From Escherichia coli (GTDB lineage Bacteria; Pseudomonadota; Gammaproteobacteria; Enterobacterales; Enterobacteriaceae): a stretch of 64,000 nucleotides of DNA. Positions 3,715 through 44,826 of this stretch are shown piece by piece. The stretch lies in assembly GCF_003991155.1 (NCBI RefSeq), contig NZ_CP031293.1; one strand, 5' to 3'. A program made the translations under genes and the position numbers. The notes beneath the pieces are model-generated. The model had not been told where the DNA came from, did no database searches, and saw only the letters and a program-made list of their open reading frames with translations. Within the stretch, counting starts at the first letter, position 1; every line of letters starts with the position of its first letter.

Positions 3715-4665
3715 CTATATCTGATAATCAATTTCCTCTTCACTGTTTTCCATCACCTGGCGCTTGATATCCTCAACTGACAGTCCTGCATTACAAAGTT
3801 CCAGAAAGCGCCAGACATAGTTACGTTGAAGTTGCCCTCGCTTCAGTCCCAACCAGACAGTATTAGCATCGAAAAGATGCCTCGTATCCAGACGGATTAA
3901 ATTCTTTTCCTCTTGTTCACCACTGGATTGTTCGGCAACTAATCCGATCCCCAGCCCAAGAGCAACATAGGTTTTAATGACATCAGAATCCTGCGCACTT
4001 AATACAATATCTGCCAGCAAACCTTTGCGGGCAAATGCGTCATCAATACGTGAGCGCCCCGTAATCCCCTGTCGGTAAGTAATTAACGGCCACTTCGCTA
4101 TTGATTCCAGCGTCAACGGTGTAATTTGCGTCAAGGGATGATCGAGTGGAACAAGCAAACTATGGTGCCAACGAAACCACGGGAAGGCGACGAGCTGCGG
4201 GTCATTACTCAAACGCTCGCTGGCGATACCAATATCAGCTTCGCCATTTTGCAACAACGTCGCAATTTCCTGTGGTGTACCCTGGATTAGCTCCAGCCGA
4301 ACCTCCGGGAAAAGTTCGCGAAAAGCTTTAATGACCTCAGGCAAGCTATAACGTGCCTGAGTATGCGTCGTTGCAATAGTGAGAACGCCAGACGTATCGT
4401 TGGTAAACAGGTCTGCAAGCCGACGAACATTACTGGCTTCATTCAGAATACGTTCTGCAATGACCAGTAATGCTTTGCCCGGTTCAGTCATGCCCAGCAG
4501 TCGCTTACCTCGTCGAACAAATATTTCGATGCCAAGTTCATCCTCCAGTTCCCGAATATGACGGCTAACGCCTGACTGTGAGGTAAAAAGCATATTCGCA
4601 ACCTCTGTCAGGTTGTAATCCTGACGTGCAGCCTCGCGGATTATCTTTAGTTGTTGGAAATTCAC
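3715..4665 (-). CDS. cbl: LysR-family regulator Cbl (CysB-like)
   Basis: 316-aa ORF MNFQQLKIIREAARQDYNLTEVANMLFTSQSGVSRHIRELEDELGIEIFVRRGKR...; N-terminal HTH plus LysR substrate-binding region; sits next to nac as in E. coli. Confidence 0.85.
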   Translation of the reverse strand: MNFQQLKIIREAARQDYNLTEVANMLFTSQSGVSRHIRELEDELGIEIFVRRGKRLLGMTEPGKALLVIAERILNEASNVRRLADLFTNDTSGVLTIATTHTQARYSLPEVIKAFRELFPEVRLELIQGTPQEIATLLQNGEADIGIASERLSNDPQLVAFPWFRWHHSLLVPLDHPLTQITPLTLESIAKWPLITYRQGITGRSRIDDAFARKGLLADIVLSAQDSDVIKTYVALGLGIGLVAEQSSGEQEEKNLIRLDTRHLFDANTVWLGLKRGQLQRNYVWRFLELCNAGLSVEDIKRQVMENSEEEIDYQI

Positions 4666-4766
4666 GGTAAACTCCGGGCAGTTCAGATATCCCGTTATTG
4701 TTAAAGTCTAATGCCCGGCATAACAAATAATAAAAACCCGCATCTTATTCCATCCCGATATAACGC

Positions 4767-5684
4767 TTAGCTCACCAATTGCCACTGCCTTTTTTCCATC
4801 ACTGGAGAATTCATCACTGACATTAACAACTCTTTCACTGCTTGCGCCTGTGGTGATAAGTTCGCTCTGGCGGGTAAATTTAATGACAAAGAGAGACTCA
4901 TGGAAGGAGTGGTAATGCGTGACATCCAACCATTTACTGCGCCACATAACGAACGCGCGGCCGATTCGGGTAATACTGCAACGCCCATGCCGCTGGCAAT
5001 CGCTGCGGTAAGCGTGGCAATAGACTCAATTTCACCAATGACTTTTGCCGTGAGTCGCCGTAGGGAAAAAGCCTCATCAACACGAAGTCTAATAGCACTG
5101 TAATCACTTGGGAGAAAAAGGTTCATTTGCGCAATAGCATTAACATCAACGCTTTGCCCCGGGCAATCTTGAGTTCCTACCAGAAAAAGATCTTCTTTCA
5201 GTAAAGCCTGACTGGATACACCAGCCACAGGGGAATGCTCATAAATCACCGCCATATCGAGTTGGTGATTTATCAGTTTTTCGTTAAGTACTGCACCGCT
5301 ATTTTCATGAAGATAAATAACGACCTCCGGGAATTCAGCGCGAACCGCCTGTAATAAGGGCATGGTGATGGATGACGCAGCGGTTCCTGGCGCAAAGCCA
5401 ATCGAGACTTGCCCCGATAATGCCTGACCAACGTTATGCACCGCCAGTTGGGCCTGCTCACACTGACGTAAAATGGCCCGCGCATGGGTATAGAGAATTT
5501 TTCCGGCGTCAGTTGGCGTAACACCCCGTTTTGTGCGAATCAAAAGTTGTTGATTTAACTCACCTTCCAGTGTGGCAACCTGCTGACTGAGCGCTGGTTG
5601 TGCGATATGCAATACTTCAGCAGCCTGGGTCAGGCTACCAATATCTACAATTTTTACGAAGTATTTCAGGCGTCTGAAGTTCAT
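4767..5684 (-). CDS. nac: Nitrogen assimilation control protein Nac (LysR family)
   Basis: ORF 4767-5714; likely start at MNFRRLKYFVKIVDIGSLTQAAEVLHIAQPALSQQV... (5684); LysR HTH. Confidence 0.85.
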   Translation of the reverse strand: MNFRRLKYFVKIVDIGSLTQAAEVLHIAQPALSQQVATLEGELNQQLLIRTKRGVTPTDAGKILYTHARAILRQCEQAQLAVHNVGQALSGQVSIGFAPGTAASSITMPLLQAVRAEFPEVVIYLHENSGAVLNEKLINHQLDMAVIYEHSPVAGVSSQALLKEDLFLVGTQDCPGQSVDVNAIAQMNLFLPSDYSAIRLRVDEAFSLRRLTAKVIGEIESIATLTAAIASGMGVAVLPESAARSLCGAVNGWMSRITTPSMSLSLSLNLPARANLSPQAQAVKELLMSVMNSPVMEKRQWQLVS

Positions 5685-5961
5685 GTTGCCTCCGGTTTTT
5701 AAGAATCGGCCCAAGTGCCGCCATTACTTACAACCAGATTGCAAGATGCTTGCCAGTTTTATTTTGGCGTTGATGTACAAGCTAACCAACTGTCAAATAA
5801 GAGATTATGATAGTTTTGTCACTCGATCTTTTTATTAGAACTCGCGTTCTCTGCCCCAAGACATAAAGGTATGCACCACGATGGTTCATTACCAAAAAGA
5901 TTGAAAGCTCACCATTTTGTCGAAATTGGCAGCAAACAAACAAAAAAATGCATTTCACCCT

Positions 5962-5990
5962 TTGACATCACCATGCACTGCCATTAATAT
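5962..5990 (+). promoter_or_regulatory. Sigma70-like promoter for tRNA-Asn
   Basis: TTGACA (5962-5967), 17-bp spacer, TAATAT (5985-5990), about 18 bp upstream of the tRNA 5' end. Confidence 0.55.
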
Positions 5991-6008
5991 GCGCCCCGTT
6001 CACACGAT

Positions 6009-6084
6009 TCCTCTGTAGTTCAGTCGGTAGAACGGCGGACTGTTAATCCGTATGTCACTGGTTCGAGTCCAGTCAGAGGAGCCA
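6009..6084 (+). tRNA. tRNA-Asn (GTT anticodon)
   Basis: tcctctgtagttcagtcggtagaacggcggactgttaatccgtatgtcactggttcgagtccagtcagaggagcca; 76 nt, anticodon loop ctGTTaa. By recalled K-12 layout this is asnT-like by its downstream context and asnV-like by its upstream context. Confidence 0.95.
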
Positions 6085-6226: not shown

Positions 6227-7513
6227 GTGAGCAAACGGAGCCCCCACGCTATGGCATTAACAGACACCGCTATTCGCAAGACTAAACCCTCTGACAAACC
6301 CTTCAAAATGACGGACAGTTCTGGACTGTACCTGTTGATCAAACCTAACGGCTCAAAACTCTGGTATATGAAGTACCGCATCGACGGCAAAGAGAAGAAA
6401 CTGGCCTTTGGCCCCTACCCGGAGATCTCCCTGTTGCAGGCTCGCCGCCTGCGCGAAACAGCACGCAATAACATTCATGCAGGCGTCGATCCGGCTGCGG
6501 TGAAGCAAACCGAGAAACAGAAGAGGAAAAACGGGCAGACGTTCAGCCAGATCGCCATCAACTGGCATAGCGAGCATAAACGCTGGTCTGAGCATTACGC
6601 GAAAACGGTTATGCGCAGGCTGGAAATGTACGTTTTCCCGGATATCGGGGATCGCCTTATCGAGGAGATCGAAACGGAGGATTTGTTATTCACGTTGCGC
6701 AAGGTAGAGAGTAAAGGCTTTCTGGAAATCACCGCGCGGCTGAAAAACTACGTCACCGATATCATGCACTACGCGATGAAAAAGAAACTGCTCAAAGCGA
6801 ACCCGGCGCTGTATCTGGACGGTGAGTTTGCCGCGCCAGAAACCAGTCACTACCCGGCCCTGTCGCTGGACAAATTGCCTGAGCTTTTAACCCGGACGGA
6901 TAGCTACTGCGGCAGGCTGCTGACAAAATACGCGCTTAAGCTGTCGCTGATTTTTTTTGTGCGCTCCAGCGAACTACGCTTTGCGCGCTGGAGTGAGATC
7001 GACTGGCAGCAGAAGTTATGGATAATCCCGGAAGAGCGCGAACAGATCGAAAACGTGCGCTTCTCTTACCGGGGGTCGAAAATGAAAATCCAGCACATTG
7101 TGCCGCTGTCGGATCAGGCGATTGCGATACTGAAACAGATCGAGGCCCTCTCCGGGCATCTGGCCTTTATTTTTCCCGGCGAATACGACCAGGACAAGTG
7201 CATGAGCGACAACACCGTCAACAAGGCGCTGCGCGTGATGGGTTACGACACCAAAAAGGATATCTGCGGGCATGGCTTCCGGGCAATGGCCTGTAGTGCG
7301 CTGAGCGAATCGGGATTATGGAGCAAAGAAGCCATTGAAAAGCAGATGAGCCACCAGGAAAGAAACAGCGTCCGTGCTGCCTATATTCACAAGGCTGAAT
7401 ATCTGGAGGAACGGATCGAGATGATGCAGTGGTGGTCAGATTATCTTGATGCAAACAGTGACGGGTATGTCTCGGCTTACCAGTATGCCCGCCGCCTAAA
7501 ACAGGCGTCGTAA
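6227..7513 (+). CDS. P4-type tyrosine integrase, island-associated
   Basis: 428-aa ORF directly 3' of tRNA-Asn. C-terminal ...HGFRAMACSALSESGLWSKEAIEKQMSHQERNSVRAAYIHKAEYLEERI... carries the catalytic H-x-x-R ... Y region. Possible alternative start at MALTDTAIRK (6251). Confidence 0.85.
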   Translation: MSKRSPHAMALTDTAIRKTKPSDKPFKMTDSSGLYLLIKPNGSKLWYMKYRIDGKEKKLAFGPYPEISLLQARRLRETARNNIHAGVDPAAVKQTEKQKRKNGQTFSQIAINWHSEHKRWSEHYAKTVMRRLEMYVFPDIGDRLIEEIETEDLLFTLRKVESKGFLEITARLKNYVTDIMHYAMKKKLLKANPALYLDGEFAAPETSHYPALSLDKLPELLTRTDSYCGRLLTKYALKLSLIFFVRSSELRFARWSEIDWQQKLWIIPEEREQIENVRFSYRGSKMKIQHIVPLSDQAIAILKQIEALSGHLAFIFPGEYDQDKCMSDNTVNKALRVMGYDTKKDICGHGFRAMACSALSESGLWSKEAIEKQMSHQERNSVRAAYIHKAEYLEERIEMMQWWSDYLDANSDGYVSAYQYARRLKQAS

Positions 7514-7636: not shown

Positions 7637-7954
7637 ATGAAAACGATAAAGACCTACATAACTGCCGACGGGCGAGATCTGTATGCAGAGTTTTTTAAAG
7701 GGTTACGCGACCCCATCGCGAAGGCAAAGATCGCTTCCCGGATCAACCGGATGGCTTCGGACAATTTTGGCGACCATAAGCCCTGCCGGGAAGGTGTCTG
7801 GGAACTCAGGATAGATCAAGGGGCTGGGTATCGGGTTTATTACAGCCTGGTGGATGGAGAAGTCGTCCTGTTGATTCTGGCTGGCGACAAGCGTACGCAG
7901 GATGCAGATATAGATGAGGCTATTCGCTGCCTCAAAGACTATTTGAAGAGGTGA
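7637..7954 (+). CDS. Type II toxin, RelE/ParE superfamily (addiction module killer protein)
   Basis: 105-aa ORF MKTIKTYITADGRDLYAEFFKGLRDPIAKAKIASRINRMASDNFGDHKPCREGVWELRIDQGAGYRVYYSLVDGEVVLLILAGDKRTQ...; upstream of and 3 nt from an HTH antitoxin gene. Confidence 0.7.
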   Translation: MKTIKTYITADGRDLYAEFFKGLRDPIAKAKIASRINRMASDNFGDHKPCREGVWELRIDQGAGYRVYYSLVDGEVVLLILAGDKRTQDADIDEAIRCLKDYLKR

Positions 7955-7957
7955 TGT

Positions 7958-8266
7958 ATGGCGAAAGAACGTTTATATGATGATGTCATGGTGGAAGCGC
8001 TCCGGGAAGATCCTGCTTTTGCTCAGGCCTATCTGCATCAGGCATTTCTGGATATGGATGAAGATGGCGGTCAGGAAGCTTTTTTACTCGCGTTACGCCA
8101 TGTTGTTGAAGCGCGGGGAGGAATGGCGACGGTTGCCCAGAAAGCCGGTGTATCGCGTGAATCACTGTACCGCACGCTCTCCCCGACCGGCAACCCGACA
8201 CTGAAAACACTCCGCAGCGTCGTCCACGCCGCAGGTTTTCAGTTCTCTGCGCTGGCAAGTGCCTGA
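7958..8266 (+). CDS. HTH-type antitoxin (addiction module antidote protein)
   Basis: 102-aa ORF with C-terminal HTH (ATVAQKAGVSRESLYRTLSPTGNPTLKTLRSVVHAAG); adjacent to the toxin gene. Confidence 0.7.
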   Translation: MAKERLYDDVMVEALREDPAFAQAYLHQAFLDMDEDGGQEAFLLALRHVVEARGGMATVAQKAGVSRESLYRTLSPTGNPTLKTLRSVVHAAGFQFSALASA

Positions 8267-8388
8267 GTAGTTTTACATTTTGCAGCGATAATATAAATTG
8301 TAAATCATAATCCCTCCGTTGCTCTGTTCTGAGCAACGGATTACTTTGCATATTATCTGCTTTGCTAATCCATCAATTTTTAATTACC

Positions 8389-8682
8389 TTACATGGAAGC
8401 AACATACTCCATTAAATTATCTAATAAAAAATCAACCTTACTTATACCTTCATTTACATTATCGGCATAGATAAGTTCTACGAGCTTCATCCAACTTAAA
8501 TTGGAACGTACATTGTATTGTAAAAGGAGCCACTCTCTAAATCCCTCTAACATTTTACCGTCAAAGGAAAAATCCATCCCTAGTATAAAAGCCACAGTGT
8601 TTTCATAGTTATTTTCAAGTAGATACATATCGATATGCTTCTTAAAAAAAACAATTTTTTTTAGGAGGATATTTTTATTCAT
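8389..8682 (-). CDS. Putative immunity protein for the orphan Rhs C-terminal toxin
   Basis: 97-aa AT-rich ORF immediately 3' of the orphan Rhs toxin fragment (2-nt gap). Confidence 0.5.
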   Translation of the reverse strand: MNKNILLKKIVFFKKHIDMYLLENNYENTVAFILGMDFSFDGKMLEGFREWLLLQYNVRSNLSWMKLVELIYADNVNEGISKVDFLLDNLMEYVASM

Positions 8683-8684
8683 AA

Positions 8685-9299
8685 TTAAAATCCAAAATTG
8701 ATTGCATCAGGATATTGCCATAACTCTTTATATTCTTGTAATGGTAAACCGTCTGAGCCAGTAAAGGCATCATAAACCCGACCATCTTTTACTACAACGT
8801 CGTGATATGCCCAACCGGGATTCGTGCCTCTGTATTTACCTAATGAAGGAGCTCCGAAATCAGGTCTAATTCTTGCAATATCACCACCGATTTTCTTTTG
8901 TACCCACAATGCAAAATCTTCACAACCATTCCAGTTCTCAGAATTTTTAATATCCGCAGCCTTCCATACACAATCAGCGTTAAGGCCTAATGGATCAATC
9001 CAATTTAACGGATCTTTGACGTAACTGTATGGATTAATACCTCCCAACACCCCGGTTGGATCTGCCGAAATATACTGCGCAGTATCAGGATCATAGTACC
9101 GGAACCGGTTATAGTACAGTCCTGATTCGGCATCTTCATACTGCCCCGGAAAACGCAGGCGGCAGTCAGGTGCATCATCCCTGTTCCTGCCTTCTTCCCG
9201 GCCCCAGAGCTGTTGTTTTCCCCGCCAGACAATGGTGCCGCCCTCGGTCAGCAGTTCCTGGACACGGCCGACCGTATCCGTCACCGCGTAATGCAACAA
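8685..9299 (-). CDS. Orphan Rhs C-terminal fragment with a distinct toxin tip
   Basis: 204 aa: conserved end of the Rhs core (GRVQELLTE...RLRFPGQYED.ESGLYYNRFRYYDPDTAQYISADPTGVLGGINPYSYVKDPLNWIDPLGL) followed by a divergent ~95-aa C-terminus. About 300 bp (9000-9300) nearly identical to 10140-10440 in the main Rhs gene. Confidence 0.8.
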   Translation of the reverse strand: MLHYAVTDTVGRVQELLTEGGTIVWRGKQQLWGREEGRNRDDAPDCRLRFPGQYEDAESGLYYNRFRYYDPDTAQYISADPTGVLGGINPYSYVKDPLNWIDPLGLNADCVWKAADIKNSENWNGCEDFALWVQKKIGGDIARIRPDFGAPSLGKYRGTNPGWAYHDVVVKDGRVYDAFTGSDGLPLQEYKELWQYPDAINFGF

Positions 9300-9442
9300 G
9301 CCTTTCTCATAACGCGCCAGCGGTGTAAAACTTCCCGGTTCGTATATCCAGCGGATGGCGTTTTCATCATCTGGCTTGCCGTCCTGGCTGACCGGAATTT
9401 CTTGGTTAGATGACCGTCAGTTAAATGGATATTATCATTCCA

Positions 9443-9784
9443 TTAAAAATCGGAATGATCCATATATTCTATATGCTCATCAGAAAGTCCATCTGGATAT
9501 AACTCTCTTGGATAATCACTATCTAAAATTGCTAGGAAGTTATTTATAGTATTTTCCAATGCCTCATCTACTGTTTTTCCCCAGCCAATAGCACCTTCGG
9601 GACAATCATCAAATTTCCGTTTAATCATTACATTTGTAATCCCCATGTAACTCCCATCCTGAGACTCTCGTATTTTTATTTTTACTTTTGCGCTAGGGAT
9701 AACACCAAACATCCAAATTACAAACTCGGCTTCAACTTTCTCTACTTTAGATACACTGCGTATTTTCATTTGATGCCAGCCCAT
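9443..9784 (-). CDS. Putative immunity protein for the main Rhs toxin
   Basis: Small ORF 10 nt 3' of the Rhs stop; likely start at MGWHQMKIRS (9784). No motif-based support. Confidence 0.5.
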   Translation of the reverse strand: MGWHQMKIRSVSKVEKVEAEFVIWMFGVIPSAKVKIKIRESQDGSYMGITNVMIKRKFDDCPEGAIGWGKTVDEALENTINNFLAILDSDYPRELYPDGLSDEHIEYMDHSDF

Positions 9785-9794
9785 ATCTTTTCCT

Positions 9795-12700
9795 CTATAA
9801 ACGACCAAAAGAGACAATTTCCCCTGTATCTACCGCAACATCAATATATCTTCCGTTCTTTCTATATCTCCACACATTTTCAGTATAACCAGAAACTTTG
9901 GTTGGTTTTATTCTTCTCAAGTTCTCAGAAAAAACCTTAGCTTTATTTAGATATTGCTCTACCGTTTCTGCACCAACTTCACGACCATGTTTTCTGAAGT
10001 GCTCCAGTAATGACTCTGCCGGAGTATCCCAACTTCCTTTACTCCATAGTTTTTTACAATTTACTTCTTGCAGGAATGCAAATAATGCCGATAAACCTAA
10101 AGGGTCAATATAACTAAATGGGTTCTGTACATATGAATATGGATTTAATCCCCCAAGTAACCCAATGGGATCTGCCGAAATATACTGCGCCGTATCAGGA
10201 TCATAGTACCTGAACCGGTTATAGTACAGTCCTGATTCCGTATCTTCGTACTGCCCCGGAAAACGCAGGCGGCAGTCAGGCGCATCATCCTTGTTTCTGC
10301 CTTCTTCCCGGCCCCAAAGTTGCTGTTTTCCCCGCCAGACAATCGTGCCGTCTTCGGTCAGCAACTCCTGGACACGACCGACCGTATCCGTCACCGCGTA
10401 ATGCAGCAAGCCTTTCTCATAACGTGCCAGCGGTGTAAAACTTCCCGGTTCATATATCCAGCGAATGGCATTTTCATATTCTGGTTTGCCATCAGTACCA
10501 ACAGGAATTTCTTCGGTTAACTGATCGCCATTCCAGTGGAAATCCATTCCGGACTTATCACGGTTGGTACACCGTTTGCTGATGCGCCTGCCAAACGGGT
10601 CGTATTTATACTCCCAGCGTTCCCCCTCCGGCGTTTCAAGCCCGGTAAGCTGACTTCTGGCATCCCAGCGATAGCGCCATTCGAGCGGACGATAGCCGCC
10701 TTTATCGACCAGTTTCTCCACCAGGCGACCATTAGCATCGTACGTCCAGGTAATATTGTGCTCATTCACCACCCGGACAAATTTTCCCTCTTCCGGCTTT
10801 CCTGTGTCCGGGTTGATGCGGTGTGTCTGATGCCGCCAGCCTTTGTGCTCTCTGGAAACAACTCTTCCATGCCGCAACTGCTGGTGTGTCTCGCTTTCCA
10901 GCACCTCATTTACCCATGTCTGGCGGCGGGCAATATTCAGGTTTTTGTCATAAGTGAACAGTTCCTCACACAGCGGAAACTCCCGGGAATCGCCCGTCCA
11001 GGTGGCATGGCTTACCTGGTCGTTAACCGTCATATTGTTGAAGGCTGATCCCCGCAGCGAGTCTGATATTACCGTCAGGTTGTACGCCTTGTCATACAGC
11101 CACTGGCGCTCCAGGCTTTTGTTCCGTTCGTACGGCCCGGCCTGGTGGTCCCCGGCATTCTGCTTCGCTGGCATCCCTGTGCGCGTGTATGCCAGCGTCT
11201 GGTAAAACCCGGCCTCGCTCCGCCTGGACGTTTCCAGGCCGCGCAGGTCGTGCTCAAATGTCAGCGGGGCATGGTCCGCTATCTGCCAGGATGCCAGATG
11301 CCCCATCAGGTTTCGGGTAAAGCGTTCTGTGATACCTGCTGTGGTGCGCTGTGTGACCGTATCCAGGTCAGGGTCGTAACGGTATTCTGTGCGCCTGCCG
11401 TTCAGCGTTTCGGCAACAATCTGGTTTGCATCGTTATATTCAAATGTAACGGTGGCATCGTCATTCTTCGCTTCCACCAGACGACGCTGCGTGTCGTAAC
11501 GAAATGTGGTGACACTCAGAGTTCGGTCACTGTTGCCCTGTGTGACTTCCTCGTCCGTCACCTGGTCATTCACGTTGTAGCGGCGGTTAAGGTGAGTGCC
11601 GTCCGGGAAGCTGGTGCGAATACAACGCCCGACGGCATCGTAGGTGTAGTTCAGCGTGCGTCCGGTGAAGTCTGTTTCTGCTACAAGCTGCCCGGCTTTA
11701 TCATATTTAAGACGGTAGCGCTCGCCTTCGGCGTTGGTAATTTCGGTCAGGCGGGTCAGTTTATCGTAGCGACACGCCAGCCGCTCGCCGTCAGGACGCA
11801 CCAGAGCCGTGAGCAGATCGAATGCACCGTATTCGTAACGGGTGGTTTTGCCCTCGCCATCGGTAAAGCTTTCCGGTAGCTTTTCGCTGTTCTGGCGCAT
11901 CAGTTCCCGCACGCCGTCCGGGCGCTGGATTTCTTCCACGCAGCCCTGTGGCCCGGCGTGGATTTTGCTGTGACGAAACTGCGTGGTGAAGCCAAGTGGG
12001 TCTTTCACACTTAACAGTCGGCCCAGCATATCCTGTTCGGTCTGCGTGATGCCGCCGTCTGGCGCAACAGTCTCGCGCACCTGATGCAGGGCGTCATGAC
12101 TCCAGCACCAGGTGGCCCCGCCCGGCAGAATCCGTGCAAGCAAATCACCCTGTTCACTGTAGCTGAACTGCTGTTTCCGGCCCTGAGGGTCGATCAGGCT
12201 GATTATGCTGCCCCGATCATCATAGACCCATTGCCACGCCTGATTATCAGTTGTCGACAGCCGGGTTAACTGACCGGTATCATTATACTCGTAGAACAGG
12301 CCATAGCCGCCCGGCAGGGCAACCTGGATAACCTCACCTTCCCGGTTATAGCGGTACGCCGTGGTACGCCCCAGCGCATCGGTGCGTGACTGAAGCCGGG
12401 CATTATTCCAGACGGTAATTTCTTCCCGCCCCAGCGGATCGATACAGCGGGTGACCAGGCCGTCCTCGTTATACCAGTAACGGGTTTCGCCCCCTTCTGC
12501 ATCCAGGTAGGTGGTGCATTTTTCATCATCGTTATAGATAAAGCGGTCATCGAAGTAGCCTTCCGTTGACAGTGTGCTGACAGCGCGCCCCTGCGGATCA
12601 TAGCGGATATCCACACAGGTTTTGTCCGTATCCCGCCAGCGGGTCATAAAGCCTTCTGATGTGTACTCATGCCATAAATGCGAGAACTGGAAGGTATCGC

Positions 12701-13883
12701 ATTCTGCCATAAAACCATTGTCATCATACTGGCAGGTCACAAGACGCTGACGCTGCGGCGTTGCCAGGTCAATGCTCATCAGCTGAGCCTGTTGCCAGGC
12801 AAGGGCGAGCATATAGCCATCGCTGTGACGGATTTCTGTCAGCAGACCATCAGTGCGGATAAAATCAATCCGGTTGCCATAATTATCGAAGACAGCGGAC
12901 AACCGCCAGACGCCATTGCCTGCCGGGGAAAAGAGCTGTGTCTGCTGCGAACGGCGATCGAAAACGCTCACGCCATCGCGCAGGCTTCCCGTCAGCCGGT
13001 AGTACGCCTGGCGTGAGTTCACTGCACCGCGAAAGATACCGTCCTGCGGCAGGCGGTAATACAGTACAACGCCTTCACTGTCGGTAAAATGCAGCCGGTT
13101 ACCCTGTATCGTCAGCGACGCTGACCACTCATCGGTCCATTTCGGGCCGAAAATCCCGGTCCCCCTGGCCTGTGAGCGGTAAAAACGCGAGAGCGTCAGC
13201 GGCAGGGAACCCGGCAGCGAAAGCACGCTGAAATGCTGGAGAAAATCGCCGGTGCCAATATCCACAGGCTCACCGGGTTTGGTGCACAACTGAGCACCAA
13301 CACATTTACTCTGATCACCAGTTCCCTCGGTTTCACCTTTAATATTTGCGCCATCCTGGCCTTCGGGTATGACATCATCCGCCAACTTTTCTGCGTCACT
13401 GACAACATCGTCTGCTTTGTTTACCTTCAGCAGATCGGCGGTGAATTTCCCCGCCGCTGCTTCTTCTCGTGCCAGTTTACTGGCAGTCCGCATCGCTCTA
13501 AGACCCACGAACCCGCCTCGGGCCAGACCATATCCTCCCAGCGCCAGCGAGCCATGGTCATAAATCATGCCGCCAATTTCCTGGTTCCTGTTGCTCATTT
13601 CCAGACGGTACATGTCCAGATTGAAATCTCCCGCATGCTCCCGGAGATCTCCGCCCATGTTGTACATATCCTCGCCAATATCATCCATGCCCATCGCAGA
13701 AAGCATGGCGCCGTTCATCTGCATTTCTCCGGCATACTGCATGGTGGCCCCCTGGCCTATCATCGTCGCCATATCCGGGAACTGGTTCCAGAATGCTTTG
13801 GCAGCACCAATAGCCAAATCAAGCTGGACTGCCGAAGCTTCAATTTTCGCCCGACTTTCATCCATCTGGATCATCAACATCAT
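9795..13883 (-). CDS. Rhs-family YD-repeat toxin (core plus variable C-terminal toxin domain); frame open upstream to the IS boundary at 13994
   Basis: 1362-aa ORF with many YD repeats (YRYDxxGRL, YxYDxxGxL), the core-terminating ...RYYDPDTAQYISADPIGLLGGLNPYSYVQNPFSYIDPLGL motif, then a ~95-aa unrelated tip. N-terminus is not the canonical E. coli Rhs MSGKPAARQGD start and is Gly/Ala/Met-rich. Confidence 0.9.
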   Translation of the reverse strand: MMLMIQMDESRAKIEASAVQLDLAIGAAKAFWNQFPDMATMIGQGATMQYAGEMQMNGAMLSAMGMDDIGEDMYNMGGDLREHAGDFNLDMYRLEMSNRNQEIGGMIYDHGSLALGGYGLARGGFVGLRAMRTASKLAREEAAAGKFTADLLKVNKADDVVSDAEKLADDVIPEGQDGANIKGETEGTGDQSKCVGAQLCTKPGEPVDIGTGDFLQHFSVLSLPGSLPLTLSRFYRSQARGTGIFGPKWTDEWSASLTIQGNRLHFTDSEGVVLYYRLPQDGIFRGAVNSRQAYYRLTGSLRDGVSVFDRRSQQTQLFSPAGNGVWRLSAVFDNYGNRIDFIRTDGLLTEIRHSDGYMLALAWQQAQLMSIDLATPQRQRLVTCQYDDNGFMAECDTFQFSHLWHEYTSEGFMTRWRDTDKTCVDIRYDPQGRAVSTLSTEGYFDDRFIYNDDEKCTTYLDAEGGETRYWYNEDGLVTRCIDPLGREEITVWNNARLQSRTDALGRTTAYRYNREGEVIQVALPGGYGLFYEYNDTGQLTRLSTTDNQAWQWVYDDRGSIISLIDPQGRKQQFSYSEQGDLLARILPGGATWCWSHDALHQVRETVAPDGGITQTEQDMLGRLLSVKDPLGFTTQFRHSKIHAGPQGCVEEIQRPDGVRELMRQNSEKLPESFTDGEGKTTRYEYGAFDLLTALVRPDGERLACRYDKLTRLTEITNAEGERYRLKYDKAGQLVAETDFTGRTLNYTYDAVGRCIRTSFPDGTHLNRRYNVNDQVTDEEVTQGNSDRTLSVTTFRYDTQRRLVEAKNDDATVTFEYNDANQIVAETLNGRRTEYRYDPDLDTVTQRTTAGITERFTRNLMGHLASWQIADHAPLTFEHDLRGLETSRRSEAGFYQTLAYTRTGMPAKQNAGDHQAGPYERNKSLERQWLYDKAYNLTVISDSLRGSAFNNMTVNDQVSHATWTGDSREFPLCEELFTYDKNLNIARRQTWVNEVLESETHQQLRHGRVVSREHKGWRHQTHRINPDTGKPEEGKFVRVVNEHNITWTYDANGRLVEKLVDKGGYRPLEWRYRWDARSQLTGLETPEGERWEYKYDPFGRRISKRCTNRDKSGMDFHWNGDQLTEEIPVGTDGKPEYENAIRWIYEPGSFTPLARYEKGLLHYAVTDTVGRVQELLTEDGTIVWRGKQQLWGREEGRNKDDAPDCRLRFPGQYEDTESGLYYNRFRYYDPDTAQYISADPIGLLGGLNPYSYVQNPFSYIDPLGLSALFAFLQEVNCKKLWSKGSWDTPAESLLEHFRKHGREVGAETVEQYLNKAKVFSENLRRIKPTKVSGYTENVWRYRKNGRYIDVAVDTGEIVSFGRL

Positions 13884-13992
13884 GTCCCAGATACTTTGCT
13901 CTTCTTTTGTTTCTGGCTCTGGCGCAGGGTCAGCTTCGCTGGCGGAAATAGCGGCTTCAGGGGGCTGACCGATAATTAAACCCGTCGTATTA

Positions 13993-15244
<1,252 letters not shown>

Positions 15245-15252
15245 CCACTACA

Positions 15253-15453
15253 CATAGCAAGGGGAAAAGGTGGATGGGAGCCAACTAAGTTACAAAATTT
15301 TGATCCTGAATTTGGCAGAAAACTACAAGCAATAAATAACGCGTTAAGGAATGGACGGATAGAATTTGCTCATGCACAGGTTTTTTTACGCAATGATGGC
15401 TCTGTTAATGCTGCAGTAGGCATTGGTAGCGGAATACAGTGGAATACCTGGTA
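15253..15453 (+). pseudogene. C-terminal remnant of an unidentified gene truncated by IS3 copy 1
   Basis: Frame open from the IS boundary: ...KLQNFDPEFGRKLQAINNALRNGRIEFAHAQVFLRNDGSVNAAVGIGSGIQWNTW*, with no start codon. Confidence 0.45.
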
Positions 15454-15463
15454 ATAATAGTAT

Positions 15464-16426
15464 GTGTATATAACGAATAAAGGAGTCCATTTTATGGCAG
15501 CAAGCAAAACAAAAAACAGACTGGAAAAAATGCTTCCTCGCGTTTATAGCTGGGCACAGAGCGGCAGCCAATCAGTAACCGCCCCTGAGTTTAACTATAT
15601 GGAACAATATATTAATGGTCAATCTGAACTTTTCATGGCATTAATTCATTTATATGGACTTGGCATGAGTGAAGCTGCATTAAGCTTACTGGAAGCCAAA
15701 CAGTCTATGGCTTCTTCTGTTATCCATATGAGTTATGGATTCTCTCGAATGCTTCATTCTGATGGCATTAATATATTGAGTTTAAAAGAAAGCAAGGCAA
15801 CTATTACTTCAGGCTTGGATTTCGTCACACATAGTATGCTTGGAGCAATTGCGCTGGGTATGCCCGCTCTGACGAAAAAATTTCACCAGATTGTTTTTAC
15901 TGCTCTTGAGAAAGGGTATGGCATTGTAAATGCGCATGAAGATCCTGGCCCAGAAACTTTACGCTATGCTGCTATGGGACTTTCCATCATTAATGACTGG
16001 CTACAGATCCCCCTGGATTTAGATAAGCTGGGACTGCCACGCGATCCGGCCTGGGGGCTTCTGGTCAAACACTGGAATAACCCTGATCCCGTTAAATTAC
16101 AATCGGTTCTGTATGATGCCTGTGATATCCATATAGAACGTATCGCGTTAACAGAACGTGAAGTTTATACCGGTAACTTTGAATTTGGCTCTCCGTTTGA
16201 AGCCGTTCACCCAACAGAGATTCTGGCGGTATTGCGCCTGAGAGACATGCTGAATCTGCCCAATCCGACATTAGACCATCCGCTGATGAACACACCTTAT
16301 GCCCAAATCACCACCACTCCGGGCCAGGTCACTCAGCCGGACAGTCTGCTAGAAACCTTTCTGGCTAAGGCCCGTGAACGGGATCCAGAGGTCATGGCCG
16401 AATGGGATCGGGTTCAGGTGGATTAA
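15464..16426 (+). CDS. Hypothetical protein encoded upstream of a PAAR gene (possible T6SS effector-associated protein)
   Basis: 320-aa ORF; no recognisable catalytic motif; 27 nt upstream of the PAAR gene. Confidence 0.5.
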   Translation: MYITNKGVHFMAASKTKNRLEKMLPRVYSWAQSGSQSVTAPEFNYMEQYINGQSELFMALIHLYGLGMSEAALSLLEAKQSMASSVIHMSYGFSRMLHSDGINILSLKESKATITSGLDFVTHSMLGAIALGMPALTKKFHQIVFTALEKGYGIVNAHEDPGPETLRYAAMGLSIINDWLQIPLDLDKLGLPRDPAWGLLVKHWNNPDPVKLQSVLYDACDIHIERIALTEREVYTGNFEFGSPFEAVHPTEILAVLRLRDMLNLPNPTLDHPLMNTPYAQITTTPGQVTQPDSLLETFLAKARERDPEVMAEWDRVQVD

Positions 16427-16453
16427 TTTGGTACTGGATACAAAGGATAGATA

Positions 16454-16717
16454 ATGAAACCATTAATAACGCTTGGGGATAAAACATCTCATGGTGGTGT
16501 TGTAATTAGTGCCAGTGCAAATTTTTTGCATGAGGGACAGCCTGTCGCCTGTGATGGTGACCAGGTAACTTGTCCGATAGAAGGCCATGGGCCAGCAAAA
16601 ATCATAGCATCTGGACAGGGGTTTTCTATAAATGGGAAACAGGCTGCACATGATGGCGATAAAACAACCTGTGGGGCAACGCTGATAGCCAGTCATTTTA
16701 TTGTGCGTCATAAGTAA
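16454..16717 (+). CDS. PAAR-domain protein (type VI secretion spike tip)
   Basis: 87 aa: MKPLITLGDKTSHGGVVISASANFLHEGQPVACDGDQVTCPIEGHGPAKIIASGQGFSINGKQAAHDGDKTTCGATLIAS; three PAAR-like repeats (GD..HGG, CDGD...CP, HDGD..TCG). Confidence 0.8.
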   Translation: MKPLITLGDKTSHGGVVISASANFLHEGQPVACDGDQVTCPIEGHGPAKIIASGQGFSINGKQAAHDGDKTTCGATLIASHFIVRHK

Positions 16718-17168: not shown

Positions 17169-25223
<8,055 letters not shown>

Positions 25224-31496: not shown

Positions 31497-32414
31497 ATGA
31501 AGTCCAGATTTGGACCAAATGGGGTGCATTTATTCGACCGAAATACAGGTCTGAACGTCCTCCTGGAGGAGTTACGCCCAAAGGAATCTGTTTGGTCCAT
31601 TTCTCCACGCCAGGTCTCGATTGCACTTACCAATCTTTGTGACCTTCGCTGCGCACATTGTTTTGCGCCCAAGCATAAGGCATTGCTACATACTGACCAA
31701 GTGCTTACTTGGTTAAAAGAACTGGATACTGAAGGATGCCTCGGTATCGGATTTGGTGGTGGAGAACCAACACTGCATCCTGATTTCGTCGAAATATGTA
31801 AACGGGCTGCTGGGGAAACTCATCTTGCAGTCACATTTACGACTCATGGTCACCGTCTGACCCAGCCATTGGTTAAAAAACTCAAAGGCTCGATCCACTT
31901 TGCGCGCATTAGCGTTGACGGGATAGGTCATACCTACGAAGAACAACGTGGAAGGCAGTTTTCAAGTTTACTCAGAGGCATTGAGTCGATCGCGAAATTG
32001 TCGTCTTTTGGGATCAATGTCGTGATAAACGAGCGTACGATTTTTGAGCTTGACGCAGTGGCTGAGCTGGCGCAACAGTTTGGTGCTAGTGAATTGCTGT
32101 TGTTGCCTCAGCAAGCAACTAATGCAGTCGCAAGTATGGACGAATTGGTCGGCCGAGAGCTTCAAAACTGGGTCTCTAGCTATAGAGGAAAGGTTCGACT
32201 TGCAGTAAGTGAGGTGGGAGCGTCAGGGCTCCCCATATGTGACCCTCTTCCTAATGAAACAGGCCTTCAAGCCTACGCGCATATAGACGCTTCCGGGATA
32301 TTGCGCACGAGTTCTTATTCAACCACAGGTATGGATATTGAAGAAACTGGTGTTATGTCCGCGCTTAAACGGCTTAGAAATACCTTAGAGATTAAACAAG
32401 GGACACAATCATGA
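31497..32414 (+). CDS. Radical SAM enzyme (single 4Fe-4S cluster type, no SPASM extension)
   Basis: 305-aa ORF; CDLRCAHCF (CxxxCxxC, nt 31635-31658), GFGGGEPTLHP (GGEP SAM-binding motif), ARISVDG; stop overlaps the next start (ATGA at 32411-32414). Confidence 0.8.
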   Translation: MKSRFGPNGVHLFDRNTGLNVLLEELRPKESVWSISPRQVSIALTNLCDLRCAHCFAPKHKALLHTDQVLTWLKELDTEGCLGIGFGGGEPTLHPDFVEICKRAAGETHLAVTFTTHGHRLTQPLVKKLKGSIHFARISVDGIGHTYEEQRGRQFSSLLRGIESIAKLSSFGINVVINERTIFELDAVAELAQQFGASELLLLPQQATNAVASMDELVGRELQNWVSSYRGKVRLAVSEVGASGLPICDPLPNETGLQAYAHIDASGILRTSSYSTTGMDIEETGVMSALKRLRNTLEIKQGTQS

Positions 32415-32818
32415 AAATTTGGAACGGATACGGATCTGAGCATTCGATGAACTTAGTTCTCATCGGAAAATTCAAGCAAGAGCAAGATGCAGTGAAGGTC
32501 GAGAAGGATATTAAAACGCTCAGTACTCAGGCTGAGAAAGATGAATGTTACTCGATCCCTTTTGATGAGCCAGAGAATCAACGGTTTTCATATGAAATGC
32601 TCTCATTACTATGCAGCCTAAAACTCCACACTTTAGGACCAACCGATCTTGGTCAATTGGTGTCAGATCATCATCTAGATCGCGAAGGCGATAGAATAAC
32701 AATAACTACTGATGAGGCAGAGGTATCCGCGTTCGTGAAGCTGTTTGTCGAGGCTGGAGCAAAGGTCGAGATTTTCTCAGCGCATGACTATCCGTCCGAT
32801 TCCAGCGATGCCAGTTGA
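32411..32818 (+). CDS. Hypothetical 135-aa protein, translationally coupled between the radical SAM and NTPase genes
   Basis: Start overlaps the radical SAM stop; its own stop TGA overlaps the TTG at 32815. No recognisable motifs. Confidence 0.6.
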   Translation: MKIWNGYGSEHSMNLVLIGKFKQEQDAVKVEKDIKTLSTQAEKDECYSIPFDEPENQRFSYEMLSLLCSLKLHTLGPTDLGQLVSDHHLDREGDRITITTDEAEVSAFVKLFVEAGAKVEIFSAHDYPSDSSDAS

Positions 32819-35800
32819 CAGAGGATGCATTGATGCCTGAAGTAAATTGGAAAGTATTCAACGAACTGCCCGGTGCAGCAGATGTGAACTTCGAAAACCT
32901 TTGCCGCGCTCTGGTACGCCGACACTATGGTCGTTTCGGTCGCTTTAAGCAACTCGCAAATCAGCCTGGGGTGGAGTTTCACCTCGAGCTGACGGAGCCT
33001 TGTGATCTCGGTGCGCCACCAGGTTGGATTGGTTGGCAATGCAAGTGGTATGAACTGGTGAATGGACAAGATTTGGGAGCCTCCCGCCGCAACAAGATCA
33101 TCGAAGGTATCGAAAAGACGCGTAAGCATGTCCCTGGAGTGACCAATTGGAAGCTTTGGACTCATCACACGTTAACAAAAGGTGATCAAGAGTGGTTTTT
33201 CGCGCTAGAGCAAGACCGCTTCCCAGAATTGAAGTTAGAACTGCTCACAGCTACGGATATCGAAGATCTTTTGGTCGGACCGGGAGCGCTTTTACGAGAA
33301 ACCTACTTTGGTGAACTGGTTCTAACTCCAGAGCTAATTGCTGAGCAGTATAAGCTTGCAGTGGCCCCATTTAAGAACCGCTACCAGCCAGATGTTCATG
33401 TAGCGGTGGGGGCTGAGGAGAATATATTCAGGCATCTGTGCAGCCAAAACGCATGGGAATCTCTGGAAGAACTCTCAAACGCTTTAAAAAAGAATCATAC
33501 GAGCATTGCTTCGGTTACTGAGCAACTCAAAACTGAGCTCAGGGCTGAAGTTGAATTACTCCTGGCCCGGGTTATTGGGTTGACTGAGTTTATTGATGGC
33601 TTACACGCGGCGCTCGGCAAAGGTGACTTTAACTCTGTATATCAAGCGTTGGTTTCAAATCCGCGTCAGCCGGTACGTTATGACAGGCTACTTTCGAAAT
33701 TGCGTGGAGCGCGCTTTGACGGGGCTCCGTTAACCGCTAATTTGGTTGCAGATATCCACGCGGTTTCGTCAGTTCTCCGCAGTCTGGAGCAATCGATTAG
33801 TGCTCGGGCGGTTGCTGTTCTTGCGGCGGCGGGGGAAGGTAAGTCTGAACTTGCAGTCAAGGTAACACAGCCAGAAGGGGCGTTCCTAGGGGGAATCCTC
33901 CTATTAGGCAAGAATCTTCATTCAGGCCAGGGGCTTGATGATCTCGTATCTGCCTTCAAGATTTCTGGGAGACCAGCAGAAAGTTTTGACCGCCTGATTG
34001 AGGCCGTAGATGCGGCAGGCCAGCGTGCAGGTAAACGCATACCTATTGTTATTGACGGTCTGAATGAGGCGGAAGATCCGAGAAATTGGAAGGATGAATT
34101 ATCCCGAGTGGATGAGCTTCTAAAGAATTTTCCTTATGTCTTGTTAGTTGTCACTCTTCGCAATGAATTCGCCCAGATGTGTCTGCCTGAGGGGTTTCCC
34201 CAAGTTGAACATAATGGGTTTCAGGAAGATCCGAAGACAGCATTTGACAAGTATTTTGAGTACTACAAGATCGATGCTACTGATGCGGATCTACCAGTCG
34301 AACTCTTGCAGCACCCCTTAACACTGAGAATTTTTTGCGAAGTAGCAAATTCTCCTCGTCAGCATATTGTCGGAGTGGAAGCATTGCCCCGTTCGCTTGC
34401 AAGCCTGTTCGAAGCTCACTTTAACAAGGTTGCAGCACGAGTCGCTGAGCTTTCACCGACGATGCATCGCATTTATCAAGATGACGTTCAGGATGCACTA
34501 CTAACGATCGCGGGTCTTCTTTGGGATAACAATGCGAGAAGTGTGGATTTTCAGGCTACACGGATGGCAGTTCGGGATATGGGGTGGGACGACAGTATTA
34601 TTCGTGCACTGGAGTCTGAAGGCATTCTCGTTCGGACTATTTCTCCAGAAGGTAGGCAAGGAGTTGCGTTTGCATACGACCTAATGGCCGGACATATGAT
34701 GGCGCGCAACCTGCTTATGAAGCCTGAACTGGTGCAATGGCTACAAAGCGATGAAGGGAACGCAAAATTTAAATCTCATGGACCTGATTCGCATACCTTC
34801 GCTTATGACGTATTACGGGCTCTGGTTGATCTGTATCCGCAACACTCTGGTAGGCGGCAGCTTTGGCAAGACTTGTCGGATGATATACTCGTTATGAACG
34901 CTCTGCTATTGACGACGCAATCGGATCCAAGATATATCGGGCGGGCTACTGTTGAACGATTTGCTCAAGCTATGCAGGAGTCGAAGCGGTTTGCACAACT
35001 TGCCTTCGAGAGACTACGGAGCACTAGGGCTGCGCTGGCACATCCGTTTGATATGAGCTTTTTGCATGATGTGCTAATGGCTATGTCCAACACTCAGCGC
35101 GATCTTTTTTGGTCAGAGTGGATTCGTCAGAAATCTGAACAAGTTAAAGACGACTTAAAATTCTTGTCGACGAGATGGAAATCGGGTCATCTGGATGAGC
35201 GTGAACTTCGAAGAGTTCGCTGGGTAATGTGGACACTGACGACGACATCCAGAGCTTTGCGGGATATGGCTACCAAAGCCCTGTATGAATTTGCCATCAG
35301 GCGGCCAGAAGAGTTTTTCCGGTTAGCGACGGAGACAATTGTAGTTTCAGACCCATATGTCCCCGAGCGAGTGTTCGCCGCAGCCTACGGTGCAGTCCTG
35401 ACCACTTGGTCGGATATCGATGCGGTAGAGTTACATGATGCGTTGCCACGGTTCGCTCGTGAGATTTACCAAACCATGTTTGCACCTGGCGCTACAGCCC
35501 CTACCTGGCATGCATTACATCAGCAGTACTGTTTGGGAATCATTGCCATTGCGAGGATGGTCGATCCAAATTGTTTTTCAGAGGACGAAGCTGTTTATCT
35601 TCTTCCGCCATTTAGCCATCTGCCTAACGTATTTGAAAGCATTCAACCGTACGATCCAGAGATGATTGGGCGAGCGGAGAGCGCAGCGATTCAAATGGAC
35701 TTTGGTAACTATACGATTGGTGGACTTATTCCAGACAGAGCGAACTACGATGACAGTAATCCGGAGTACCAACAGGTGTTGCAGGCCATTGTTTCTCGAA

Positions 35801-38264: not shown

Positions 38265-38789
38265 TTAAATTGCTCCATTTGCCTTAGCATCAAGAATGAA
38301 TTTTTCATACTCGCGTTCTGCAACAACAACAGGGACTGTTTTGCGATTATATAATTGCATTAATAACAATGTACGATGCCTTCCATCAGAAACACCAAAT
38401 TCACTGTTAGATGCCTCTGGATATTCAACATACCCTTTTGATATATATTTTTTGATTTTATGCCATCTACGCGGATCAATGCAGAATGCTCCATCTCCTA
38501 ATTTTTTAAGAAAGGCTAGCCCATCGACATATACAATCCTGGTAGGACAATGCCGATAGCGTACAGGAAGGGTAAAGATAATATTTTCAAAAACAGGGAA
38601 AGTAAGACCTGAATCATCTTTAGGTATTGACTCAAAGGAATCAAAAGGATATTTTGTCATGTAATCATTTAGTTTTTCAATATCCATATTGGAAAACCAC
38701 GATACTTCCGGGAGAAATTTTTTATCTCTTTCTCTAATTTCTTTGATCGAATCTCCAAATATATCATCTAACCTCCACCCCTCTTTCAT
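38265..38789 (-). CDS. Hypothetical protein with a DGxHR motif (ParB/Srx-like fold suspected)
   Basis: 174-aa AT-rich ORF; ...EFGVSDGRHRTLLLMQL... resembles the DG(Q/H)HR core of ParB-like nuclease-domain proteins; last gene of the orphan Rhs array. Confidence 0.4.
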   Translation of the reverse strand: MKEGWRLDDIFGDSIKEIRERDKKFLPEVSWFSNMDIEKLNDYMTKYPFDSFESIPKDDSGLTFPVFENIIFTLPVRYRHCPTRIVYVDGLAFLKKLGDGAFCIDPRRWHKIKKYISKGYVEYPEASNSEFGVSDGRHRTLLLMQLYNRKTVPVVVAEREYEKFILDAKANGAI

Positions 38790-38833
38790 TTATGCTCCTA
38801 AAATAATGTGATATTAAAAATTCTGTTAATAAG

Positions 38834-39349
38834 TCAAATTTTATGAATACTAATAAGGGGTTTGCACCACTCAACCGAGAGAATATCTTCCATTTTATAA
38901 AAAACGCCATAATCACTTTGATTATAATGCTCAATTTTATCAGCCATTTGTAATCTAATTTTGTCTTTGTAAATTCTACTTCGGATCAAACTGGCGAAAT
39001 TATATATATCAACCCTCAGATTGATAATATTATTTCTATCTGGGCGTCTTTCATGTAACATATCACGAAAAGAAACAAGTAACGTAATTAATTTTTTAGC
39101 CTCATTATTTTTAATATATCCTTTTTTAAAGATGCATAATATTAATTTTGAAATTAAGCTGATTTTTATTTGTAAATTATAGATAGCATTATCGTTTGTC
39201 AGGCAGGTTATGACTTCAATTACTTCACGTGAGCGAATATAATTGTCCAGTGCTTCCCATTCATCCATTCCTCGATGCATTGAAAGTTCCAATTGCCTTA
39301 AAAAAGCATATAACCCCAATAAGAAGTCGCTATTGCAGTATATTTTCAT
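38834..39349 (-). CDS. Putative immunity protein for Rhs fragment B
   Basis: 171-aa AT-rich ORF overlapping by 4 nt the stop of the Rhs C-terminal fragment. Confidence 0.5.
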   Translation of the reverse strand: MKIYCNSDFLLGLYAFLRQLELSMHRGMDEWEALDNYIRSREVIEVITCLTNDNAIYNLQIKISLISKLILCIFKKGYIKNNEAKKLITLLVSFRDMLHERRPDRNNIINLRVDIYNFASLIRSRIYKDKIRLQMADKIEHYNQSDYGVFYKMEDILSVEWCKPLISIHKI

Positions 39350-40835: not shown

Positions 40836-40850
40836 CTGTAATTTTACAGG

Positions 40851-41763: not shown

Positions 41764-43013
<1,250 letters not shown>

Positions 43014-43016
43014 CCA

Positions 43017-44677: not shown

Positions 44678-44826
44678 TGACAGAAGTGTCAGAAACACGA
44701 TTACAGTAAAATCAGGCTCTCCCGGCTCTCTGCCTGCTTCTGCTGGCGGAGAGCCGGGAGAAGACAAGCGAAGCGCGGCAGGATGCCATCCCGCTGTTGA
44801 TAACAGTCACAACCGGAGTCGTTTTT

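Follow-up and report, generated by a model that had tools for sequence, protein, structure and literature searches.

What is the function of an rhs fragment that lies downstream of a main rhs gene and its immunity gene, ends in a different toxin tip and is followed by a small ORF of its own? Orphan Rhs cassettes are thought to be reservoirs for changing the toxin that is fired at neighbours. We analysed such a fragment in the chromosome of Escherichia coli, within a window of 64,000 nucleotides (the whole stretch of DNA that was analysed). It sits in a genomic island that is integrated at a tRNA-Asn gene (6009-6084) and has nac and cbl as neighbours. A preliminary description of this DNA had reported a fragment with a core repeat, a different tip and its own small ORF, and all three are present there, on the minus strand. 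The features of the locus are collected in Table 1.

Table 1. Features of the island segment around the orphan cassette (positions in the window)
Feature	Position	Strand	Source or remark
Integrase	6227-7513	+	
RelE/ParE toxin	7637-7954	+	
Antidote of RelE/ParE toxin	7958-8266	+	
GC-rich hairpin	8315-8340		between the converging orphan immunity and antidote genes; consensus match only
Orphan immunity gene (rhsI-orphan), 97 aa, ATG start	8389-8682	-	ORF list, RefSeq CDS
Orphan toxin tip (Rhs-CT-orphan), 98 codons after DPLGL	8688-8981	-	stop codon at 8685-8687
DPLGL of the orphan copy, core/tip boundary	8982-8996	-	sequence and translation
Annotated orphan ORF, 204 aa, TTG start at 9299	8685-9299	-	ORF list, RefSeq
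Orphan copy of the Rhs core 3' end, direct-repeat arm 1	9028-9403	-	
Main immunity gene (rhsI-main), 113 aa	9443-9784	-	RefSeq annotation mapped onto the window
Main Rhs ORF, 1362 aa, 5'-truncated	9795-13883	-	ORF list, comparison with 980-2
Main tip, 98 aa	9798-10091	-	part of the main Rhs ORF
DPLGL of the main gene	10092-10106	-	
Main-gene core copy, direct-repeat arm 2	10138-10513	-	1110 bp from arm 1
IS3-family element	13991-15256	+	30-nt terminal inverted repeats, orfA/orfB

Anatomy and distribution of the orphan cassette

The main rhs gene, the main immunity gene, the orphan and the orphan immunity gene all lie on the minus strand. Their GC content is 0.29-0.42 in both tips and both small ORFs and 0.50-0.60 in the core. 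AT-rich tips and immunity genes beside a GC-richer core are the usual contrast in Rhs loci, which argues against a chance arrangement. The hairpin beyond the orphan immunity gene is a possible terminator, judged by its sequence.

The open frame of the orphan runs from 9416 to 8688 on the minus strand and comprises 243 codons, with the annotated ORF running from 9299 to 8685. Residues 1-106 of this ORF correspond to residues 1161-1266 of main Rhs, up to DPLGL. The repeat of about 110 core residues given in the preliminary description therefore holds for the annotated ORF, but the full open frame extends it to 144 residues, which are 87.5% identical to main residues 1123-1266 (tblastn). The orphan core ends in PYSYVKDPLNWIDPLGL and is followed by an unrelated 98-aa tip; beyond DPLGL, the orphan and main tips have no relation to each other. 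Homology to the core begins at ~9403, just past a 1-nt indel and ~10-40 nt past the stop codon of the main immunity gene. The core remnant has a Pfam RHS match, and both small ORFs (204 aa and 97 aa) are annotated by RefSeq in identical E. coli records, the orphan as 'RHS repeat-associated core domain-containing protein'. We conclude with high confidence that the feature is an orphan rhs-CT/rhsI module, of a well-described kind (Poole 2011; Koskiniemi 2014), downstream of a main rhs/rhsI pair. The earlier reading as a toxin-tip/immunity cassette in this position is borne out: the core ends at DPLGL, no in-frame ATG occurs in the 243 codons, the fragment has no N-terminal delivery domain, and the linkage of tip and immunity gene is conserved (see below).

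Tip and immunity gene (8389-8985) were found in 33 of 5426 complete E. coli genomes, in one copy each and with 100% identity in all carriers. A 1201-bp query that ran across the junction to the main immunity gene's 3' end was covered to at least 80% in 33/33 carriers, and to 100% in those 30 that were listed, which places every copy in the orphan position. Likewise, the 1.2 kb around the cassette are 100% identical to many RefSeq complete genomes. A chance ORF, or a duplication of the Rhs 3' end that arose during assembly, might be invoked for an ORF with a TTG start only. We regard this as extremely improbable, as the same 1.2 kb occupy the same position with 100% identity in 33 independently assembled complete genomes, and homologues of tip and immunity protein occur across phyla. 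Moreover, the two core copies differ at 44 of 376 positions and are thus not an assembly duplicate. Since all 33 copies are identical, the population carries no signal of selection either way.

Could the cassette be expressed by itself? It might form an autonomous module with a promoter inside the core and a non-ATG start, acting inside the producer and independently of delivery as a growth regulator of the type II toxin-antitoxin kind or as an addiction module of the island. Internal transcription and CTG/ATG starts have been shown for rhs-CT/rhsI pairs of Salmonella Typhimurium, in which the internal start sites of main and orphan pairs lie 89 nt upstream of the PxxxxDPxGL-coding sequence (PMC7043789). 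In the orphan studied here, the first canonical start in the long open frame is the TTG at 9299, further in-frame GTG/TTG codons lie ahead of the tip, and the immunity gene begins with its ATG 2 nt past the orphan stop codon, which makes translational coupling possible. The cassette is also intact despite the decapitated main gene; this is uninformative, however, because all copies are identical. Reading of the sequence gave no convincing Shine-Dalgarno motif before the TTG. A promoter scan of 8200-10600 yielded 6 promoter-like sites, compared with 6.2±2.5 expected from shuffles, and thus no enrichment; none of the sites was located 5' of the orphan on the minus strand. Furthermore, a bona fide RelE/ParE toxin-antitoxin pair is already present next door in the island. 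An autonomous function is accordingly improbable in our view. From its sequence, and by analogy, we infer that the cassette alone is silent as a toxin.

The direct repeat and the truncated main gene

The two core copies align over 376 bp without gaps at 88% identity (local alignment), with 44 mismatches and a 1-nt indel at the 5' edge. By blastn, 9028-9408 matched 10138-10519 at 88.8% over 384 columns (E ~1e-132). Identity in overlapping 50-bp windows across 9058-9357 ranged from 86 to 96% (92-96% in most), and the longest exact runs were 32, 28, 27, 26 and 23 bp. Among 124 codons, 26 differ synonymously and 10 non-synonymously. The preliminary description had placed about 300 nearly identical base pairs opposite 10140-10440. 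These coordinates were about right and slightly short, but the copies are more diverged than 'nearly identical' implies.

As the direct repeats are offset by 1110 bp (3×370), a chimera formed by crossover stays in frame. A simulated crossover gave an ORF of 4089 nt with a single stop codon, encoding 1362 aa that consist of the Rhs shell and the orphan tip, and removed the main tip together with the main immunity gene. RecA-type recombination between the 376-bp repeats could thus re-arm the orphan tip: the crossover would remove 1110 bp, comprising the main tip, the main immunity gene and the 5' remnant of the orphan, and place the orphan tip in frame behind the Rhs shell, as demonstrated for Salmonella LT2. 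With 88% identity and exact runs of at most 32 bp, mismatch repair should make such a crossover rare. We also considered another Rhs fragment in the window (39.7-40.1 kb) as recombination partner and rejected it, as it is only 73-76% identical to the orphan core.

The main gene itself is damaged. Its reading frame runs into the IS3 element at ~13990, the end of which abuts codon ~119; the first ~119 codons are gone, and the first ATG corresponds to residue 156 of the protein of strain 980-2. In 980-2, the gene is intact and encodes 1517 aa with a Tox-PAAR-like domain (PF13665) at residues 16-123 (E 3e-32), which is absent from the main Rhs of the window. Between IS3 and the Rhs frame, 418 bp of the 980-2 sequence are missing from the window, and these were found nowhere in its 64 kb. 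The truncation is common to 31 of the 33 carrier genomes. Only 980-2 and UID2309220003 have kept the 5' end; there, IS3 is located 62 bp upstream of the start. In matching records, the IS3 transposase is annotated with a programmed frameshift. The remaining part of the main protein has RHS_repeat and RHS Pfam matches on its C-terminal 294 aa, is annotated as RHS repeat-associated core by RefSeq and has a core that ends in DPxGL. Neither Pfam nor NCBIfam matched the main tip, and NCBIfam did not match the main immunity protein. No DUF2169 accessory gene lies directly upstream of the Rhs gene in the window, where IS3 stands instead. A DUF2169 remnant was observed 28 kb away, to the right of a second IS3 copy (41764-43021; 99.9% identical).

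PAAR-like domains mount Rhs effectors on the VgrG spike. As the PAAR-like N-terminus was lost to IS3, the truncated main protein is probably not deliverable, and a swap to the orphan tip in this strain would, by its sequence, probably yield no deliverable toxin. The recombination route would then be a dead end here, IS3 having taken both the PAAR-like N-terminus and the upstream region of the main gene. The proposal in the preliminary description that recombination could swap the displayed toxin thus holds for the geometry, which is in frame, whereas the swap was not seen in 33 genomes and the main gene has no PAAR-like domain. In RefSeq, the truncated main gene and the orphan alike bear the ordinary label of an 'RHS repeat-associated core domain' protein, which would mislead counts of effectors.

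The alternative fusion that had been envisaged for other strains was not found: in none of the 33 E. coli carriers is the orphan tip joined to a full-length Rhs, although at the level of the tip family Rhs/YD proteins and long open frames do end in this domain. Besides the 33 carriers, the core remnant was matched over most of its length in E. coli only by 11 further genomes. These have a related island with DUF2169 and a full-length PAAR-like Rhs that is ~95% identical at the Rhs 5' end. The one examined of these 11, AMSHJX01, has a DUF2169-linked intact Rhs with 93% DNA identity to the main Rhs core, a third, different tip with its immunity gene, and no orphan. The main gene ceases to be homologous to the orphan and to the Rhs of AMSHJX01 at the same DPxGL point (window ~10096), at which three different tips (main, orphan and AMSHJX01) are joined to homologous cores. 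We conclude that, within the clade, tips have been replaced at this boundary. At the 44 sites that differ between the core copies, AMSHJX01 agrees with the main gene at 25, with the orphan at 15 and with neither at 4, and its matches are clustered in blocks (window-enrichment permutation P=0.002; runs test P=0.07). This mosaic of core ends suggests past gene conversion, as far as the sequences tell. Polarizing the core copies by AMSHJX01, in order to arrange the displacement of main and orphan in time, yielded no order because of the mosaic.

The toxin tip and its predicted immunity protein

The orphan tip gave no Pfam match even at E≤10 and no NCBIfam match. In 5.8 billion proteins, a word-indexed search recovered 17 clusters with 49-85% identity to the tip, all 56-160 aa long, and no homologue of at least 49% identity that was longer than 160 aa. 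Ahead of the tip, some of these have a DPxGL-type Rhs end, and one has a PT-HINT domain. The closest relatives are two Salmonella fragments and metagenome fragments, and in the alignment of close relatives G-C-E is conserved, and one His and one Asp are invariant. With a profile search of 1.84 billion representatives, the family grew to 477 proteins (336 at E≤1e-10). Among the 150 matches listed, proteins ranged from 76 to 2387 aa, with the domain at or within ~15 residues of the C-terminus; three of the longest (2181-2387 aa) carry YD repeats and the Rhs-associated core (Rhs_assc_core) and end in the tip domain. In an alignment of 46 sequences, H57 is invariant and C17 and D68 are nearly invariant, and the E. 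coli tip has all three; alignment positions C17 and H57 are its residues 20 and 60.

Scanning one genome per species, we found 17 loci in Myxococcota, Planctomycetota, Actinomycetota, Cellvibrio and an alphaproteobacterium. At these distant loci, open frames of 1514-2303 aa end in the tip domain, and clearly eroded tip remnants were also found, among them remnants of 85-237 aa at loci of Streptomyces and Nonomuraea. Among the representative genomes of Enterobacteriaceae species, none yielded a member of the family.

The best structural matches of an AF2 model of the tip were protein-glutaminase (2zk9, 8z3i), NTAQ1/C8orf32 (3c9q), SseI (4g29) and TecA (7pzt). These proteins have a Cys-His(-Asp) triad, and several of them deamidate Gln or Asn in proteins. 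Foldseek against AFDB50 returned homologous toxin tails, two of which (60% and 42% identical) are named 'Tox-PL domain-containing', and 'Tox-PL-2' entries at marginal E-values. However, the Pfam models of Tox-PL (PF15644) and Tox-PL-2 (PF15643) matched none of the 46 family members at E≤0.1, and searching PDB sequences with the family profile produced no meaningful match. Judged by its conserved residues and modelled fold, the tip is probably a Cys-His-Asp papain-like polymorphic-toxin domain and a putative enzyme. It is predicted to act in the cytoplasm of the target as a cysteine peptidase or as a protein (Gln/Asn) deamidase.

Is the 97-aa protein the partner of this tip? It has no Pfam or NCBIfam match. 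In Salmonella Westhampton, a tip with 83% identity has a 98-aa ORF starting 2 nt behind it, whose product shares 64% identity with the protein from E. coli. At a second Salmonella locus, a decayed tip remnant of 74 aa without the Cys region precedes a truncated ORF of 78 aa (59% identical). Of the 17 distant loci, 14 likewise encode a homologue right behind the tip (tblastn, E 1.5e-12 to 3e-4). This linkage, conserved in Salmonella and in distant phyla, indicates that the pair is cognate. No signal-peptide-like N-terminus was recognized in the translation of the 97-aa protein, which argues for a cytoplasmic target rather than the role of a cell-wall amidase. The protein is therefore predicted to be the cognate cytoplasmic immunity protein.

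We tentatively propose that tip and 97-aa partner belong to a toxin/immunity family pair that Pfam and NCBIfam have missed. The toxin would be a Cys-His-Asp papain-like enzyme of ~95 aa that acts in the cytoplasm of the target, probably as protein deamidase or peptidase, and that is carried by Rhs/YD and PT-HINT toxins of Proteobacteria, Myxococcota, Planctomycetota and Actinomycetota, with a member of one small immunity family in tight linkage to each copy. Both databases still overlook this widespread papain-like pair of toxin and immunity protein. If the proposal holds, the E. coli cassette would be a tractable genetic entry point to a new toxin activity.

The decayed copies raise the question of whether the E. 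coli cassette is itself a decaying remnant, in which the toxin fragment erodes while the 97-aa gene is kept as orphan immunity against the same toxin from other bacteria. Orphan immunity genes are reported to protect against non-self effectors (PMC10539506), and inactivation of the main gene by IS3 in 31/33 genomes as well as the tip remnants in Salmonella (74 aa) and in Streptomyces and Nonomuraea would fit such a course. We nevertheless consider it unlikely for the cassette as a whole. Inactivating mutations, which the preliminary description had named as a sign against its reading, are not found: the E. coli tip is full length, its frame is open and the conserved Cys, His and Asp are kept. 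Expression of the immunity gene apart from its upstream neighbour would have to be assumed. Likely attackers would be few, given the absence of the family from Enterobacteriaceae representatives and closest relatives that are Salmonella or metagenome fragments.

Taking these lines of evidence together, we favour the view that a PAAR-like Rhs effector island at tRNA-Asn has here left a displaced orphan rhs-CT/rhsI module, a reading we hold to be very probable. All that the locus now provides in this strain, most likely, is two retained immunity genes and a recombination reservoir. With the main Rhs decapitated in most carriers, it illustrates that a reservoir cassette can outlive its delivery gene.

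Comparison with known systems

The conceptual addition is small: a well-known orphan arrangement combined with a poorly annotated toxin/immunity pair. For the toxin, the points of reference are Tox-PL1, Tox-PL-2 and Tox-PL3 (PMC3482391), which are likewise small C-terminal toxins with a C-H-D triad on RHS-repeat and HINT toxins and have the alpha+beta fold predicted for the tip. Their motifs, given as 'NC, H, D' for Tox-PL1 and 'C, NxxH, DN' for Tox-PL-2 (Zhang 2012, PMC3482391), differ from that of the tip, GCE ... W-x-[YH]-H-[ED]-VVV ... GRVYDAFTG; a further difference is the linked immunity family, which has no Pfam match. Because the motifs differ and the Pfam models miss all 46 members, we place the tip near Tox-PL and not as a demonstrated member.

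For the arrangement, the counterpart is rhs-CT-orphan/rhsI-orphan of Salmonella LT2 (STM0292; PMC3967940). [quoted passage not shown] Both also have a direct repeat with the main gene (full-length in LT2) that permits a deletion fusing the orphan tip to it. LT2 is the one case of orphan activation that has been shown experimentally: its repeats, 522 bp long and 95% identical, recombine, and no orphan product is detectable unless they do (PMC3967940). By this analogy, recombination should be rarer at the E. coli locus, as its repeat is shorter and more diverged (376 bp at 88%). Moreover, the LT2 orphan tip occurs fused to full-length rhs in other serovars (PMC3967940), in contrast to the close relatives studied here; the main gene is intact in LT2 and without its PAAR-like N-terminus in the window; and the toxin domain of the LT2 orphan differs from our tip.

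The same general architecture is reported for the orphan cdiA-CT/cdiI and rhs-CT/rhsI modules of Poole 2011 (PMC3150448) and for arrays of displaced effector and immunity genes, for example in Vibrio cholerae (PMC5361080). The locus studied here differs in having a single orphan only. The presumed origin would be shared, in that a newly acquired tip/immunity cassette enters by recombination in the conserved region and displaces the older one to a downstream position.

IS3 copies and rearrangement between carriers

The two IS3 copies of the window are nearly identical (see table), and the left side of each is adjoined by a 5'-truncated Rhs piece. In the matching E. coli record, strain AR Bank #0349, a single IS3 is present at the locus, and a DUF2169 remnant, ash, HTH, HigA and an integrase-domain gene lie directly beyond it. 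In the window, this same block is 28 kb away, on the right-hand side of IS3 copy 2. We therefore conclude that the carrier strains are set apart by IS3-mediated rearrangement or deletion.

In the RefSeq annotation, both the orphan, which lacks a start, and the IS3-truncated main Rhs gene have ordinary CDS entries named 'RHS repeat-associated core domain-containing protein'; neither is marked as pseudogene or fragment.

Features of the window
Feature	Coordinates	Strand	Remarks
RelE/ParE toxin and antidote	7637-8266		between island integrase and orphan cassette
Orphan	8685-9299	-	start-less
Main Rhs gene	9795-13883	-	IS3-truncated
IS3 copy 1	13991-15256
320-aa hypothetical protein, then 87-aa PAAR protein	15464-16717		between IS3 and YeeJ-type adhesin gene
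Ig-like, YeeJ-type adhesin gene	17169-25223		2684 aa
Radical SAM, DUF6375 and 1358-aa hypothetical (32815-36891) proteins	31497-36891		inserted after yeeN
Second Rhs fragment cluster	38265-43021	-	adjoins IS3 copy 2
Small ORFs 3' of Rhs pieces in this cluster	38265-38789; 38834-39349; 40851-41303
463-aa ORF	39346-40737	-	RHS_repeat and RHS Pfam matches
176-aa ORF	41282-41812	-	contains Rhs core end
IS3 copy 2	41764-43021		99.9% identity to copy 1, direct orientation
DUF2169 remnant to integrase-domain block	42970-46269		right of IS3 copy 2

Second Rhs cluster and neighbouring genes

A further group of Rhs fragments was observed next to the second IS3 copy, and its 463-aa ORF shares 81% identity with residues 920-1266 of the main Rhs protein. 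Because small ORFs come after each Rhs piece, this cluster is probably another orphan toxin/immunity array. It is present in a reduced-length version in strain 980-2, an E. coli cassette carrier with an intact main Rhs 5' end.

The RelE/ParE pair is missing from the related Rhs island of strain AMSHJX01, as is the orphan. On the other side of the main gene, the 320-aa hypothetical protein gave no match in an NCBIfam search, and the 87-aa protein matched T6SS_PAAR_dom weakly (32 bits versus a cutoff of 124). The insertion after yeeN possibly represents a module with a defence or accessory role; in strain 980-2 its annotation is hypothetical only.

Tip homologues in Salmonella

In S. Westhampton (locus L006, 3602-8689), the tip is intact and belongs to an orphan array of several cassettes. 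This array also contains a Peptidase_M91-like ORF (weak Pfam match), a fragment of Ntox34 and an ORF with HEAT repeats (HEAT_2) that presumably encodes an immunity protein. In Salmonella enterica GCA_010503415.1 (locus L008, 8001-8464), a degraded tip copy of 74 aa, from which the Cys region is gone, and a truncated immunity ORF follow a type I-E CRISPR-Cas locus, ~3.4 kb downstream of its cas2 gene.

Gene order at the tRNA-Asn genes

Around the three tRNA-Asn genes of the window (regions 3715-6084 and 49266-51165), the gene order is cbl-nac-asn-island-yeeJ...yeeN...asn-yeeO-asn-ldtA-cob-pdu. This order departs from that of E. coli K-12, which suggests a rearrangement between the asn tRNA genes or their islands.
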